This document shows, piece after piece, positions 31,801-37,800 of a stretch of DNA of 64,000 nt. Source of the DNA: Candidatus Poribacteria bacterium (GTDB taxonomy: Bacteria > Poribacteria > WGA-4E > PCPOR2b); assembly GCA_965116925.1 (NCBI GenBank), contig OZ220744.1, positions 4,864,001-4,928,000 on the forward strand, read 5' to 3'. A program made the position numbers. The number at the start of each line of letters is the position of its first letter. Position 1 is the stretch's first letter.

Positions 31801-34800
31801 TAAATCAAGGGCTTAGTTTCGATGCAACCGAAGACGCAGTTTTGGTCGCAGCTGCCCGTGATCCAATTTTTAATAAGGATGTCAGCTACTATGTTTTTCG
31901 GATGCCCTTGGAACGCTTGATTTGCGGCTACCTATTCGGTCTATTTATGCTGGTGACCCTTTTTACAGGTGTGCTTTACTTTTTTCACGGATTACTTATC
32001 AATGATGATAACCGCTTTGCACCGCCACAGCGCGTCAGGACGCATCTGTTCATCTTGATTGGTTTGACACTGCTGTTTCGTGCTTGGAATTACCAGTTTG
32101 TGATGTACGACCTGCTCTACACGACCAACGATGTTGTGCGGGGCGGCGGCGGTTATGCAGCGATACAGGCACGGCTGCCCGTGTTATGGATACTGCTCGC
32201 ACTTACTGTCATCTGCGCGTTGATTTTTTTTATCAGCATTTTTTTAAAGCGTATTTCGTTCGCTGTTGGTAGCGTTATCGTTCTTGTACTTGTTGCCTTT
32301 ATGGGACAAGCCTATCCTCGTATCGTTCAAAACCTGAAAGTTGAACCGAGTAAGCAGGAACTTGAGGGTAGATATATTAATTATAACATCAGGGCAACAC
32401 TGCACGCTTATGATCTGGAGGATAGTACCGTGACCGAGACGGAGTATCCTCTGACGGGGGAACTGTCTTATGATAATATCACGGGGCAGGAAAATGCAGC
32501 AGTAATTAACAGCATCCGGCTTTGGGATTGGCGGCCGCTGCGTCGCACTTTCCGTCAGCTGCAGGAGTTACGTTCACAATACGATTTTGCTGACGTGGAT
32601 ATCGACCGTTACCTGATGGAAAGTGGTGAACCCCGGCAGGTGATGCTCTCTGGGCGTGAACTCAATATTAACGATTTGCCGCGTGAGGTAAGCCGGGACT
32701 GGTTTAAGCGCACTTATGTCTACACGCACGGCTACGGCGCGGTGATGAGTCCTGTGAATGAAATTCTGGACGGAAAGCCGAAGATGTACATTCGGGATAT
32801 GGACCCAATTAATTACGAACCTGAATGGGCATATCGGTTTAACGACAATCCGGGACCTCGAATTTACTACGGTGAGCGTACTAACCACTATGTCATTGTC
32901 CATCCAGATCGGTCAGAGGGGCTTGAGTTTGATTACCCCGAAACGTTTGGACAAGATTTTGCCAAATACTCGTACCAAGGGGTAGGCGGTGTCGATCTTT
33001 CTTCGTTCATCCGAAAATTTGCGTACATGCTGAAATTTAATAACGCACTCAATTTCATCTTGCCCGGCGAAATCCGACCAACCAGTCGTGTCCTCTACAA
33101 CCGGAACATAAAAGAGCGTGTCAGCCAAATCGCTCCATTCCTGAAATATGATAACGACCCTTATCTTATCATCCACAACGGTCGGTTAATTTGGATGATC
33201 GATGCGTATACAACGACCGCGCGTTATCCTTATTCCGCGCCGATGCAGGATGCCATCCGCAGAACCATTATGGAACAGGGTGGCAGACGCGCTGCTGGGC
33301 GTATCGTCGGCGGCGAAAGACCGTGGGGTAATTATATCCGCAACGCTGCCAAGGTCACGATTGATGCCTACGACGGCAGCGTGAACTTCTATCTGATGGA
33401 GCAGGAGCAAGATCCGGTTGCGGAGTGTTATCGTCGTATCTTCCCAGATTTATTCAAACCGTTCGATGCGATGCCCGAAGATCTCAAATCGCATATCCGA
33501 TACCCGACCACGATGTTCCTCATCCAAGCGCGGATGTATCAGGATTATCACATGAAAGATCCGATTACTTTCTACGCGAGTGAAGATCAGTGGCAGATCG
33601 GTGAGGAACTGTACGATAACACTGAGCGTCCTCGTCCCCCACAGGTGCCGCAACCGCCAAGTCCATTCGCACGTACCCAGCAGCTGCCGGAAACGGTCAC
33701 AAATGTGCAAGAGGTTGCCCCTTACTATGTGGTCGTCAAAATACCGGGAGAGGAACGCGCGGAATTTGTCTTGATGCTCCCGTTCACGCCGAAAAACAAG
33801 CCGAATCTCACCGCTTGGATTGCTGCGAGATGCGATTTACCGCAGTATGGACAGCTGCTCGTCTATCGGTTTCCAAAAGGCAAACTCGCCCCCGGGCCGA
33901 TGCAGGTGGAAAACTTCATCACACAAGAGCCCGAAATTTCCCAGCAGATTAGCTTGTGGAATACGCAAGGTTCACGCGTCCTGCGCGGCAACCTACTTAT
34001 CATCCCGATGAATGAGGCGATCCTCTATGTTGAACCGATCTACATCCAAGCTGAGAACGAAGAGTCTGCGATTCCCGAATTGCGTCGCGTTGTTGTTGGC
34101 TATAAGGAAAATGTCGCATGGGGTGCGAGCCTTGATGAGGTGTTGATTAACATGTTCGGCAAGCGGTTGGAGGTTGCGATGACGCAAAAAAGCACTGATG
34201 ATGAAGCTGCTGAAGGGGTGAGTGCAGCCATCTCGGTATCCACTTCGACACTGGCAAAACAGGCGCGAGAGCAGTTTGAGGCGGCACAAACAGCGCAGCG
34301 CACAGGGAATTGGGCGGAATATGGACGTTACCTGAATCTGCTCGAAGCGACCTTGAAGCAGCTTGAAGCGGATGCTAGATAAGCATGAAAACGTGAAAAC
34401 GAGGGGACGTGAAAACGGGAGAAACAGCGGGTGCGCAAGTGAGCGAATGTGCTTCTCACTTTCTTGTCCTGTTGCTCCCTTGTTATCTCGTCATGGCGCA
34501 ATGACGCGATGAACGAATGAACTAATACACTAATGAACTAACGAAGGAGGTGAACTACATGGGACTCGATTGGAAACCACGTCATCGGGATATGCTTATT
34601 GGCGGATACTGGTGGTTGGCACGGGTTACGGATAAGGCGCGTGCCAAATTGAACGGTACTATCGGTGAGTACATCTACCCGTGACCGCAGGACAAAAAGT
34701 TCCTGGAGGAACACAAGCTAGATGCTGACGAGTTCGTTGAGATGGTCAAAAGCAATCCGTCAGACGATGATATGATCGCCGCGATGCAAAAGCTCAATCG

Positions 34801-37800
34801 ATAGGAAACGCAGATCTGCGTTCCGTACAGAAATAGTGAGTAGGAGAGCGGGCAGCGATTTCCCCGAGACATCAGGATTTCGCTGCGCTCAACCTGCTCT
34901 GACTTCCAAAAATATATCTCAGATTTAATAACATAAAACGGAGAATCAGTCTCAATGAAAAAAACAACCTTGTTTACTTTTATGCTATTGTTGGTCTCTG
35001 CACTACTTCTATCAAATAGCTTCGCGCAAGAAAATCCGCAGTGGCAGCTGCCTGATGGTGCCAATGCGCGTTTTGGCAAAGGCTGGATATCTGCACTTGA
35101 CTATTCGCCCGATGGCACCCGGTTAGCAGTTGGCAGTCCCATTGGTATCTGGCTATACGATACGACAACCCTTCAAGAGGTTGACCTGCTCACCGGGCAC
35201 ACGGAAACAGTCTCTACTATCGCATATTCTTCGGATGGGACTATACTCGCCAGTGGAAGTTACGATGATACCATCCAGCTATGGGATACCGCAACGGGTG
35301 AGAGTATCAATACTCTGACTGGACATGAGGACAGCGTGTTGAGCATTGCCTTCAGTCCGGACGGAAAAACCCTCGTCAGTGGAGGCTACGACGATACCGT
35401 TCGCCTGTGGGATGTCGACACCGGCGAAAATATCAACACCTTTACCGAACATGAAGATTGGGTCTCTAGTGTTGCTTTCAGTCAGGCTGGGGATATGATT
35501 GCCAGCGGGAGTTGGGACCAGACCGTTCGCGTTTGGGATATTGCTACAGGCGATAACCTCCATACCTTTACCGAACATACGTCTCTCATTACAACAGTCG
35601 CTTTCGGTTGGGGCGGCACACTCGCTAGTGGAGACTATGATGCGATGATTCATCTGTGGAATGTTAAAACAGGTGAGAAAATCAGAACTCTCACTGGGCA
35701 TACCTCAACTATCTACGAGGTTGTCTTTTCTGCGGATGGAGGTATATTGGCAAGCGCGAGTGAGGATGATACTATCCGCCTGTGGAATGCTGTCACGGGT
35801 GAGACAGTCAAAACCTTTACTGAACACGCTGCTGATGCCTACAGGGTTGCGTTTAGCCCGGATGGCAGCACCCTTGCCAGTGGAAGCGGGGATGCGACCG
35901 TCCGTCTGTGGGATGTTGACACCGGCGAGAGTGTTGGCACCATTACCGGACATGAGAGTCGTGTCCTGAGCGTTGCTTTCGGTCCGGGAGACCGCACACT
36001 CGTTGGTCGGAGTTGGGATCAGACCATCCGTGTCTGGGACACCGAAACCGGAGAGCGTCAACATTTGCTCGTGGGACATACGGACGACGTAGACATTGTT
36101 GTTTTCAGTCGGGATGGCCGTAAGATTGCTAGTGGAAGTCAGGACAATACCGTCCGCTTGTGGGATGCTGAGACTGGCACACACTTGAAAACCCTCGTCG
36201 CGCATTGGGCTTATATTATAACCATCGCTTTCAGTCCCGATGGTACGCTCCTCGCTAGTGGAAGTGAGGACGATACTGTTCGTTTGTGGGATGTCGCCAC
36301 CGGGGAGCGTCTGGGACGGCTTTGGGGACATTATGCTGGTGTCGAGACGCTCGCTTTCAATCGCGATGGCACCCTCCTCGCTAGTGGGAGTCGAGACGCG
36401 GTCATTACCCTATGGGATACCGCCACTAGGGAGTGGCTGCACTTTCTCTTTGGTCATCGTGGCCATGTTCTCACCGTTGCTTTTAATCCGGATAGTACAA
36501 TCCTTGCAAGTGGAGGCTGGGACAATACCATCCGTTTGTGGGATGTCGCCACCGGGGAGGAGATGACAGTTATTCAAGCAAGCGAGTATGGTGTAGAAAA
36601 TGTTATTGAGAGCGTTGCTTTCAGTCACGATGGAAAGACTCTTGCAGCCGGAGGGTGGGGTAATGCAATTGGCTTGTGGGATGTTGCAACAGGTGAGCAT
36701 ATCGAAACCTTTACCGGACACGCCTCTAGGGTTGAGAGCGTTGCTTTCAACTCCGATAGTACAGTCCTCGCAAGTGGAAGCCGGGATGGCACGGTGTTGC
36801 TATGGGCTGTTCCACAACCACCGCCAGAGCCCGTGGAGCCACCGCCCGCACTCGTCGAGGATGTCAACGGGAATGGAGTGGTCAACATCTTGGATTTAGC
36901 ACTCGTTGGCTTGCGTTTGGGACAGATAGGTGAGAATGATGCCGATGTCAACAGGGATGGCGTTGTGGATATTGCGGACTTGGTTCAGGTCGCTGGGGCT
37001 ATCGCCAACGCGGCAGCAGCACCTTCGGTGCAGCCTATAGCATTGGCGAACCTTACCTCCAAAGATGTCGAGGGATGGCTTACCCAAGCACAAGTGTTAG
37101 ATCTAACGGATGTCCGTTCACAAAGGGGAATCCTTTTCCTTGAACAACTTCTTGCAACATTGGCTCCGAAAGAGACAGCACTCTTGCCTAACTTTCCCAA
37201 CCCGTTCAACCCGGAGACGTGGATCCCTTATCAACTCGCCACCGATGCTGATGTGACCCTCACGGTCTATGACACAAAAGGCACACCGGTGCGACAATTC
37301 GATTTGGGACATCAGTCCGCAGGATTCTACACTACTCGGACAAAAGCTGCTTATTGGGACGGGCGCAACGAAACCGGCGAATCGGTCGCAAGTGGAGTCT
37401 ATTTCTATCAACTTCAAGCAAGTGATTATACTGACTTACGGCGGATGGTGATTCTCAAGTAGATGCATTAATTGGCGAAAGAATCCGGGGGTCGCTAAAA
37501 AACTCGGATTCTGAATCTAAGCCATCTTTCGCTCATTTGCCATGTATTTGGGGTTCTGCAAAACGGATAATCAAAAAGGAGAATTAATCTCAATGAAAAG
37601 GATAGTGTTTTTTAGCCTTACTTTATTATTTTTCTCTGCTCTATTTCTATCAAATAGCTTCGCCCAAAATAATCCGCAGTGGCGGTTACCCGAAGATGCG
37701 ATTGCGCGATTCGGTAAAGGGTGGATAGCTGGAATTCAGTATTCGCCTGATGGCAGTCGGCTCGCAGTCGCGACCGCCATCGGTATTTGGCTCTACGATA

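Follow-up and report, generated by a model that had tools for sequence, protein, structure and literature searches.

The window, the whole stretch of 64,000 nucleotides analysed here, carries a small gene of the DUF5069 family between a gene for a membrane protein and two WD40-repeat genes, with pheA further downstream. The features of the locus are the following:

31194..34382, plus strand: upstream neighbour, UPF0182 membrane protein of 1062 amino acids (Pfam PF03699, E 7e-240)
34544..34550, plus strand: Shine-Dalgarno-like AAGGAGG, 8 nt upstream of the ATG, seen in the sequence itself
34559..34804, plus strand: proposed coding sequence of a short-DUF5069 selenoprotein, 81 codons, coordinates including the stop codon
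34559-34561, plus strand: start codon ATG
34682..34684, plus strand: in-frame TGA, codon 42, in the motif YP-U-P-x-D, proposed to encode Sec (from conservation and Cys orthologues)
34699..34712, plus strand: proposed bacterial SECIS mini-hairpin GUUCC-UGGA-GGAAC of 14 bases, loop at 34704-34707, in codons 47-52 (K-F-L-E-E-H)
34802..34804, plus strand: true stop TAG, from the sequence
34804..34824, plus strand: inverted repeat directly 3' of the stop, with no T run (-9.5 kcal/mol for 34796-34840)
34955..40127, plus strand: two WD40-repeat genes, 34955-37462 and 37542-40127 (Pfam WD40)
40342..41433, plus strand: pheA, with chorismate mutase, prephenate dehydratase and ACT domains (Pfam CM_2, PDT, ACT)

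Under translation table 11 the small gene ends at the TGA, giving a product of 41 amino acids from the ATG at 34559 (44 from an upstream GTG). Reading through the TGA gives 81 residues, which include the stretch EYIYP-U-PQDKKF, and the starts of the orthologues coincide, each with M(G/S/A)LDW. With a Cys placed at the TGA, the read-through protein matches Pfam DUF5069 (PF16798) with an E value of 1.9e-16 and 60.9 bits, above the gathering cut-off of 27. Residues 7-78 are aligned to profile positions 4-75 of 133, and thus the homology continues through the TGA. The survey's finding of an 81-residue gene with an in-frame TGA is borne out in its coordinates and its motif. Judged by this alignment, the gene encodes a short form of the domain, the C-terminal half of which is missing. 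An AlphaFold2 model of all 81 residues has a pLDDT of 94.2. The ratio dN/dS is 0.077 before the TGA and 0.113 after it; by these estimates the frame behind the TGA is under purifying selection.

Contigs from the RNA libraries of three studies span the gene through the TGA and show no variant at the TGA or at the hairpin; such contigs reveal neither transcript ends nor levels, their libraries possibly contain DNA, and they speak weakly in favour of the selenoprotein reading. A promoter scan of 34300-35000 returned no sites. The inverted repeat behind the stop may be a transcript-end hairpin; a consensus terminator scan did not report it.

If the TGA were a real stop, the 41-residue product of standard ORF calling would be the mature one, and the 117 bases behind it would be the untranslated remnant of a longer ancestral gene. 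Public gene calls do often end at the TGA, and 7 of 153 family representatives end at the Sec site. A remnant, however, would not hold the exact frame together with the conserved helix pattern. The downstream frame is open, with a dN/dS of 0.11, in about 140 genomes and in a second phylum as well, and both Pfam and the crystal structure PDB 3omd align through the site. A real stop is therefore extremely improbable.

The conservation of the TGA is nearly complete within the order. The best match (64-99% identity) contains exactly one in-frame TGA in all 101 genomes of one sample, which covers 4 families and 17 genera and includes the genome studied here (G000), and the weaker paralogous matches in the same 101 genomes contain none. 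In a second, overlapping sample the TGA form is found in 139 of 140 genomes of the order and is missing in one that is 81% complete (G152). The survey had counted 61 of 61 genomes, and these larger samples agree with it. Its extension of the Sec form to all Poribacteria is not sustained: beyond this order the TGA form occurs in a single genome of the same class, the only one sampled from family f7 of another order. All five genomes of the sister family f5, also of this class, have a Cys form without the stop; neither of two genomes of family f6 has a match, and none of three genomes from other classes (f8, f9) has one at E<=1e-10. The Cys form is not explained by a loss of the Sec machinery, as four of the five Cys-form Poribacteria genomes were tested and have selB and tRNA-Sec. 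Outside the phylum, TGA forms are present in 32 of 81 Latescibacterota genomes sampled, and selB in all five tested from that phylum. The Sec status that the survey had assigned to this DUF5069 member is thus upheld, and the idea of Poribacteria as its sole Sec lineage is not.

At the TGA codon the Cys orthologues (52-67% identity) carry TGC or TGT. Aligned with Sec, 125 of 153 family members have Cys and 13 have Ser, and the site is one of seven columns conserved at 90% or more. The genome's own paralogues have Cys (L002) or Ser (both domains of L003, and L005) there, as the survey had noted. By these alignments Sec occupies the place of an almost invariant Cys in the DUF5069 motif Y-P-C/U-P-x-D.

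The genome has the apparatus for Sec insertion. A tRNA-Sec scores 76.6 bits and is called SeC with anticodon tca by ARAGORN, and selB (373 bits), selA (607 bits) and selD (369 bits, with an in-frame TGA of its own) are present, all four components being above the curated cut-offs. TGA is an ordinary stop in this genome, where it ends 897 of 3017 ORFs of at least 300 codons, and selA and selB have no internal TGA. These observations bear on the possibility that UGA is decoded as Trp, Gly or Cys through a changed code or near-cognate suppression. Gene calls on short metagenome contigs do show W at the site (YPWP). Those contigs are 530-991 bases long, and their W probably reflects the choice of a different code by the gene caller. 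Public annotation thus cuts the Sec-type DUF5069 genes short or prints Trp for their UGA. A code in which TGA ends 30% of long ORFs, homologues with Cys at the site rather than Trp or Gly, and a TGA accompanied by complete Sec machinery and a SECIS-type hairpin make decoding as another amino acid highly improbable.

A conserved in-frame UGA with a conserved coding frame behind it, complete Sec machinery and Cys-containing homologues, as expected of a SelB/bSECIS-dependent selenoprotein gene, are all found here. Thus, 34559-34804 is read as a selenoprotein gene in which UGA codon 42 encodes Sec, with a probability of about 0.93. Incorporation of Sec at this codon is a prediction at the level of sequence, and one that is almost certainly right. 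NCBIfam release 20, which includes selenoprotein models, has no family that matches at E<=1, and a cluster look-up returned no names for the divergent Sec forms.

The survey had left the SECIS element unanalysed. The proposed hairpin has its loop 19 nt behind the UGA in the window and 22 nt behind it in genus g2, where an additional codon is present. Codons 48-51 (F-L-E-E) are each represented by one codon in all 49 distinct orthologues, whereas 2-6 codons are in use at every one of the other 20 invariant, degenerate columns. Since the silent positions of F-L-E-E are frozen, the constraint acts on the RNA and not on the protein. The RNAalifold consensus recovers the hairpin 34699..34712 and contains no other conserved structure in the 54 bases behind the TGA. 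The five core pairs form in 44 of 44 Sec-form sequences, a sixth pair in 27 and a seventh in 20, and the loop U-G-G-A is invariant in all 44. The closing pair is GC in 35 sequences, CG in seven, AU in one and GU in one, which represents compensatory change. The covariation score of 0.207 was reached by none of 500 shuffles (0.067) and compares with at most 0.093 for a slid alignment; it reflects few independent events among related sequences. All 56 distinct TGA forms have an intact UGGA-loop hairpin and none of 72 Cys forms does; it has decayed even where Cys forms share 76% identity with Sec forms (L192, L193, L195). The hairpin analysis hence adds support for Sec.

The consensus bSECIS model (PMC13188914, Fig. 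2 legend) has an apical loop of 3-9 nt and an upper stem measuring 4-16 bp. One or both of the first two loop bases are G, with G or U usually coming next; the distance from the UGA to the apical loop is 16-37 nt, and the minimum free energy is -7.5 kcal/mol or lower. The loop of 4 nt, the stem of five conserved pairs, the loop G and the spacing of 19 nt all fall within this model. Taken alone, the hairpin has -5.7 kcal/mol in a context of 48 nt and -4.2 kcal/mol when folded as a 14-mer, and so does not reach the limit. A 40-nt stretch attains -7.8 kcal/mol only by way of a competing, non-conserved fold. This competing hairpin, CAGGA/UCCUG, is thermodynamically favoured in the window's own sequence (pair probability about 0.97); it was rejected as the SECIS because changes in its 5' arm are not compensated and because no more than 8 nt separate its loop from the UGA. 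The missed energy limit lowers the fit to the search model for bSECIS elements and not the case for SECIS function. When 34400-35000 was compared with Rfam at E<=10, the only matches, to microRNA and DnaX entries, were due to chance, and no SECIS family was among them.

Sec might also be inserted with the help of another structure recognised by SelB, the 14-base hairpin being conserved as a regulatory hairpin, as a minus-strand terminator, or through constraint on the F-L-E-E peptide. A stability short of the published energy limit would fit this, and on the minus strand the hairpin followed by a T run resembles a terminator. The A/T run, however, is not conserved in the orthologues and no minus-strand gene converges on the site, so the terminator role was rejected. 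The frozen silent sites point to RNA rather than to the peptide, the 54 bases behind the TGA offer SelB no other conserved structure, and both the perfect association with TGA and the decay in closely related Cys forms are what a SECIS would show. It is thus very unlikely that the hairpin serves some purpose other than Sec insertion.

The preferred reading, a Sec codon served by this hairpin, can be compared with known selenoproteins. PMC13188914 (May 2026) lists 119 selenoprotein families and subfamilies in its Table 1. The window gene resembles the single-Sec families with an intragenic bSECIS in having a UGA at a conserved Cys, Cys homologues and the Sec machinery, as well as a small hairpin inside the coding sequence with a G in the first two loop positions at a distance within the published range. 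It differs from them in its conserved hairpin of five pairs that fails the energy criterion, and in its absence from the inventory: as the survey had stated for 'DUF5069', neither that name nor 'PF16798' is found in the paper, Table 1 included, and the family is uncatalogued there. The protein has no thioredoxin fold and no UxxC/CxxU pair; its lone Sec stands between two prolines.

The other selenoprotein genes of the genome are selD, two of AhpC/TSA type, a thioredoxin-like gene, a tandem AhpC/TSA gene with two TGA codons, and a DUF3179 gene. As in the window gene, the Pfam domain spans the TGA. Six of their seven Sec codons (five genes) have a small apical loop whose first or second base is G and which begins 17-24 nt behind the UGA (AGUU, GGA, GACC, CGGGAU twice, CGUGU); the thioredoxin-like gene has an ambiguous apical region. 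Unlike the window gene, they have longer stems, of 7-9 pairs, and belong to catalogued families.

The Latescibacterota Sec forms (P0019; L174-L191) share the place of the hairpin and its UGGA loop, with the motif YP-U-(P/G/A)-A-D. They are 44-62% identical to the window protein and have an N-terminal motif DF(R/K)PR. In one clade the closing pair is inverted (C-G) and a kinase-like gene immediately precedes the Sec gene (6 of 18 Latescibacterota Sec loci).

The UPF0182 gene is a conserved upstream neighbour within the order, and it is found in the same place in L055 and L057. The WD40 genes separate the small gene from pheA in the window's genus; the other genera examined have no WD40 genes at this place, and pheA follows directly. 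It lies directly 3' of both Sec and Cys forms (L055, L057, L083, L084, L086, L088, L094, L112) and forms part of a cluster of six homologous downstream neighbours in the Poribacteria loci. By this gene order, pheA is the ancestral downstream neighbour in the class. The links of DUF5069 differ from phylum to phylum. Among Cys loci a kinase-like gene stands directly upstream in 37 of 80, which represent at least five phyla; at L144 the pair shares an ATGA overlap. The kinase-like enzyme retains the Lys, Glu, Asp and Asn characteristic of kinases. For most loci neither Pfam nor NCBIfam has a family that matches it, and no NCBIfam model matched the kinase-like neighbours or the DUF5069 paralogues. 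The homologue in this genome (G000:C1:1273452-1274561) adjoins no DUF5069 gene.

The model superimposes on PDB 3omd, an 'unknown function protein from Leptospirillum rubarum', with Z 12.8 and an rmsd of 1.4 A over 79 residues (Foldseek TM 0.86). The next VIA-align chain has Z 3.5 and the next Foldseek match E 2.9, and the ESM Atlas, searched with the Cys paralogue of this genome, returned nothing usable. As the uncharacterised 3omd is the sole outstanding match, the fold gives no function. Cys-type DUF5069 proteins, 3omd included, share with the window protein the fold over residues 3-81 and the conserved R22, D25, K26, R28, A29, C42 and D45. The window protein differs from them in having Sec for Cys and in spanning only the first 75 of the 133 profile positions. 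In the high-confidence model, the second helix starts at Sec, which caps it.

By combining these data with the bacterial Sec pathway, a possible course of events can be described. During translation the hairpin at 34699-34712 would bring in SelB with Sec-tRNA(Sec), and UGA-42 would then be decoded as Sec instead of stop. There is about an even chance that Sec would then act as a single reactive nucleophile, its selenol carrying out redox or group-transfer chemistry with a partner protein. Gene order suggests as candidate partners the upstream kinase-like protein, in several other phyla, or the pheA operon, in Poribacteria. The label 'redox protein' is suggested by the use of Sec and Cys and by their place in the modelled fold. 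Given the Ser at this site in some members and the helix-cap position, part of the family does without a Cys or Sec nucleophile. It is conceivable, if rather doubtful, that the short Cys/Sec DUF5069 is the reactive small subunit or the substrate of a two-gene system with the kinase-like enzyme. The lone helix-cap Sec or Cys would then accept or resolve a group activated by the kinase-like partner, and Poribacteria would have uncoupled the pair and moved the Sec protein ahead of pheA.

The 14-base hairpin with its invariant UGGA loop is among the smallest SECIS candidates, and it shows that the usual energy filter in SECIS searches can overlook real genes. Two uncultured phyla commonly carry the family, and one of them, Poribacteria, comprises the main symbionts of sponges. 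Proteins employ Sec almost exclusively at catalytic sites, and its occurrence here thus marks the conserved Cys of DUF5069 as a likely active residue. A crystal structure of DUF5069 has been available since 2010; in the conserved Cys/Sec site, predicted to be active, the family would now have a concrete residue to mutate and assay.

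The short form of DUF5069 (PF16798) constitutes a genuine selenoprotein family. The survey's finding that the small gene of the window encodes a selenoprotein is borne out by the selenocysteine (Sec) machinery of the genome, the conserved TGA, the translated frame downstream of it, the Cys homologues and a SECIS-type hairpin. The gene is laid out as follows, in window coordinates:

34544-34550 (+), Shine-Dalgarno-like AAGGAGG 5' of the ATG, read from the sequence
34559 (+), ATG start of the small gene, which opens the read-through frame
34682-34684 (+), in-frame TGA, codon 42, read from the sequence
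34802-34804 (+), TAG stop of the small gene, read from the sequence

Reading through the TGA, as had been proposed, gives a product of 81 residues, and both the frame and the motif EYIYP-U-PQDKKF are confirmed in the sequence. When Cys is placed at the TGA, residues 7-78 match positions 4-75 of the 133 in the Pfam DUF5069 profile (60.9 bits; cut-off 27), and the homology therefore spans the TGA. The protein is a short DUF5069 form, comprising the first half of the domain only. Searches of the read-through protein against NCBIfam and of positions 34400-35000 against Rfam gave no match.

The genome of the window (G000) is a single contig of 6.47 Mb. Its tRNA-Sec (76.6 bits; identified by ARAGORN as SeC with the anticodon tca) is adjoined by selB (373 bits) and selA (607 bits), and its selD gene (369 bits) carries an in-frame TGA of its own. 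A changed genetic code as the cause of the read-through is ruled out, since TGA serves G000 as an ordinary stop and ends 897 of its 3017 open reading frames of at least 300 codons. Two hits that stay under the cut-off of the tRNA-Sec model, at 13737-13820 (+) with 42.3 bits and at 25941-26025 (-) with 39.8 bits, are probably ordinary long-arm tRNAs.

Further selenoprotein genes of G000 were found by scanning for TGA at a few Cys-type motifs and requiring Cys paralogues: two of the AhpC/TSA type, one thioredoxin-like, a tandem AhpC/TSA frame with two TGA codons, and DUF3179. A Pfam domain spans the TGA in each. As only these few motifs were covered, the true selenoproteome is probably larger. 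All of these genes lie outside the window:

Loci L089, L090, L091 and L093 of G000, AhpC/TSA fusion (WUGSC), AhpC/TSA (WUPNS), thioredoxin-like with TPR (WUGFC) and DUF3179 (WUPLC), with the Pfam domain across an in-frame TGA
G000:C1:4745312-4746304 (contig-wide; locus L092), tandem frame, two AhpC/TSA domains in one open frame

In the tandem frame, a TGA occupies the peroxidatic position of each domain (GG-U-TTE and GG-U-TAE), and an identical hairpin with a CGGGAU loop follows both. The frame holds either one tandem peroxiredoxin that bears two selenocysteines or a pair of neighbouring genes in a common frame.

The TGA of the small gene is conserved throughout the order. One in-frame TGA had been claimed for every order genome searched (61 of 61), and the larger sample extends this to 101 of 101 genomes from four families and 17 genera: the best match, at 64-99% identity, contains exactly one in-frame TGA, and the paralogous matches contain none. 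In a second sample of the order, which overlaps the first, the TGA form is present in 139 of 140 genomes and is missing from one that is 81% complete. All 51 orthologues inspected (50 of the order and one of another order) read YP-TGA-(P/A). Nei-Gojobori counts, taken over pairs whose dS lies within 0.3-3, give dN/dS ratios of 0.077 for the part preceding the TGA and 0.113 for the part that follows, the latter being 0.110 when the hairpin codons are excluded. These ratios argue that the stretch behind the TGA is translated. RNA-library contigs from three studies cover the small gene through the TGA, one of them (273 bases) spanning 34544-34803, and all are free of variants at the TGA and across the hairpin. 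As evidence of expression these contigs are weak, because transcript ends cannot be read from them and DNA may be present in libraries of this type.

The candidate SECIS element is a hairpin of 14 bases, GTTCCTGGAGGAAC (34699-34712), which consists of five pairs and a UGGA loop and is identical in nearly all orthologues. The codons 48-51 (F-L-E-E) are each represented by one codon in all 49 distinct sequences, compared with two to six codons at all 20 other invariant columns that have degenerate codons. This pattern of codon usage argues that the constraint here acts on the RNA. RNAalifold, applied to 44 distinct sequences, found this hairpin alone. In two genomes of one genus the closing G-C pair is replaced by G-U and A-U. 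The hairpin is kept, at the same codons and with the same loop, in all 18 TGA forms fetched from a second phylum, Latescibacterota, where one clade has C-G for the closing G-C and two sequences have U-G wobbles. In a set of 44 distinct sequences that draws on both phyla the five core pairs always form, and the closing pair is GC in 35, CG in seven, AU in one and GU in one. The fraction of paired cells in this set is 86.7%, compared with 77.2% in shuffles, none of 500 of which reached it. The covariation score of 0.207 exceeds the 0.067 of shuffles (again, no shuffle of 500 reached it) and the maximum of 0.093 obtained when the partners are slid. Because the 44 sequences are related, shuffles overstate the case, and sliding provides the fairer control. 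The five-pair stem with the UGGA loop follows 56 of 56 TGA codons but 0 of 72 Cys codons, counted as distinct 48-base stretches from fetched loci that match the motif pattern, after duplicates, N-containing and non-matching stretches were dropped.

The hairpin fits the bSECIS model (PMC13188914, Fig. 2 legend) in loop size, stem length, a G in the first two loop positions and a spacing of 19 nt, but the conserved hairpin alone, at -5.7 kcal/mol, misses the energy limit of -7.5 kcal/mol. For the window's own sequence, greater stability is predicted for a competing hairpin, the 5' arm of which is not conserved. Small loops that carry G at position 1 or 2 and begin 17-24 nt behind the UGA accompany six other Sec codons of G000: one each in selD, DUF3179 and two AhpC/TSA-type genes, and two in the tandem AhpC/TSA frame. 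Hairpins of this type therefore appear to be what the local SelB reads. The SECIS of the small gene is unusually small but well supported.

The TGA form had been claimed for all Poribacteria. The claim holds for the order and for the sole genome of family f7 of the same class. It fails for family f5, also of this class, where the orthologues of all five genomes (53-57% identity) carry TGC or TGT at the site, and five further Poribacteria genomes gave no match at E<=1e-10. All four f5 genomes tested still have selB and tRNA-Sec. Of 153 family proteins surveyed (149 taken as representatives at 50% identity and four from the first search), 125 have Cys aligned to Sec-42, 13 have Ser, one has Trp and seven have some other residue; in the remaining seven the protein ends at the aligned residue. 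Among 109 aligned members, seven columns reach a conservation of 90% or more: C42 together with R22, D25, K26, R28, A29 and D45. The paralogues of G000 carry Cys (L002) or Ser (both domains of L003, and L005) at this site, as reported earlier.

An AlphaFold2 model of the protein, built with 109 sequences (pLDDT 94.2), has a short beta hairpin (13-18) and four helices (20-32, 43-51, 56-65 and 69-80), with Sec-42 immediately preceding the second. Sec-42 is likely the active residue. Thiols and selenols placed where a helix begins are commonly activated by the helix dipole. The C-P at the helix start may resemble that of small sulfur-carrier proteins, which we take as a lead only. The only similar solved structure is the uncharacterised protein 3omd (profile E 2e-51; Foldseek TM 0.86; VIA-align Z 12.8, the next chain being at Z 3.5). 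No literature on it was found; the full-text matches listed for '3OMD' all concern a metabolite.

In the window, the small gene is preceded by UPF0182 and followed by two WD40 genes and then pheA. Elsewhere in the class, across other genera and orders, pheA lies directly 3' of the small gene, in Sec and Cys forms alike, and is followed by an aminotransferase gene in both loci scanned that far (L083 and L088). The WD40 genes look like a lineage-specific insertion, because they are absent from this position in the other genera examined. A homologous gene of about 350 codons lies directly upstream, on the same strand, in 37 of 80 Cys loci outside Poribacteria (from Latescibacterota, Chloroflexota, Clostridia/Bacillota, Gemmatimonadota and Handelsmanbacteria) and in six of 18 Latescibacterota Sec loci; in L144 (gene at 1940-2980) it overlaps its DUF5069 neighbour by ATGA. 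Its invariant K and E and conserved D and N fit a kinase-like enzyme. Two members scanned give weak Pfam APH matches; 36 of the 37 have no Pfam match at E<=1e-8, and the family has no NCBIfam model. The homologue in G000 (29-30% identity) is distant from the small gene and has no DUF5069 neighbour. The features are:

34955-40127, pair of large WD40-repeat genes that in this genus separate the small gene from pheA
43758-45110 (-), TnpB-like transposon protein with OrfB_IS605, Cas12f1-like TNB and HTH_OrfB_IS605 domains
Loci L099-L155 and G000:C1:1273452-1274561, kinase-like family (about 350 residues), the genes of which immediately precede short DUF5069 genes in at least five phyla (G000 copy excepted)

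A separate conserved pairing, of a DUF3386 protein upstream of a Cys-type DUF5069, is seen in Nitrospirota (L158, L163, L167, L171 and L173).

As far as could be checked, the family is uncatalogued. Neither 'DUF5069' nor 'PF16798' occurs in the searched literature or in the supplements of BSepDB (PMC13326102) and deep-Sep (PMC12013277). The family is absent, as had been stated, from a May 2026 review (PMC13188914), the whole Table 1 of which lists 119 selenoprotein families. Public protein collections contain Cys forms of 52-66% identity as well as short-contig gene calls that show W in place of the TGA. In P0002-P0008, P0010-P0012 and P0019, from contigs of about 0.5-1 kb, the Sec codon is rendered as Trp (YPWP), presumably by a gene caller that chose another genetic code on short contigs. 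Selenoproteins stay hidden in protein databases through entries like these.

Among 81 Latescibacterota genomes sampled, 38 match P0019, a Sec form of this phylum, and 32 of these have one TGA. The hairpin decays in Cys forms related to Sec forms, three of which keep a damaged copy: L192 and L193 (76% identity to P0019) have one broken pair each, and the more distant L195 (47%) has an intact stem with the loop UACA. These loci appear to have switched between Sec and Cys recently and could help to date such switches.
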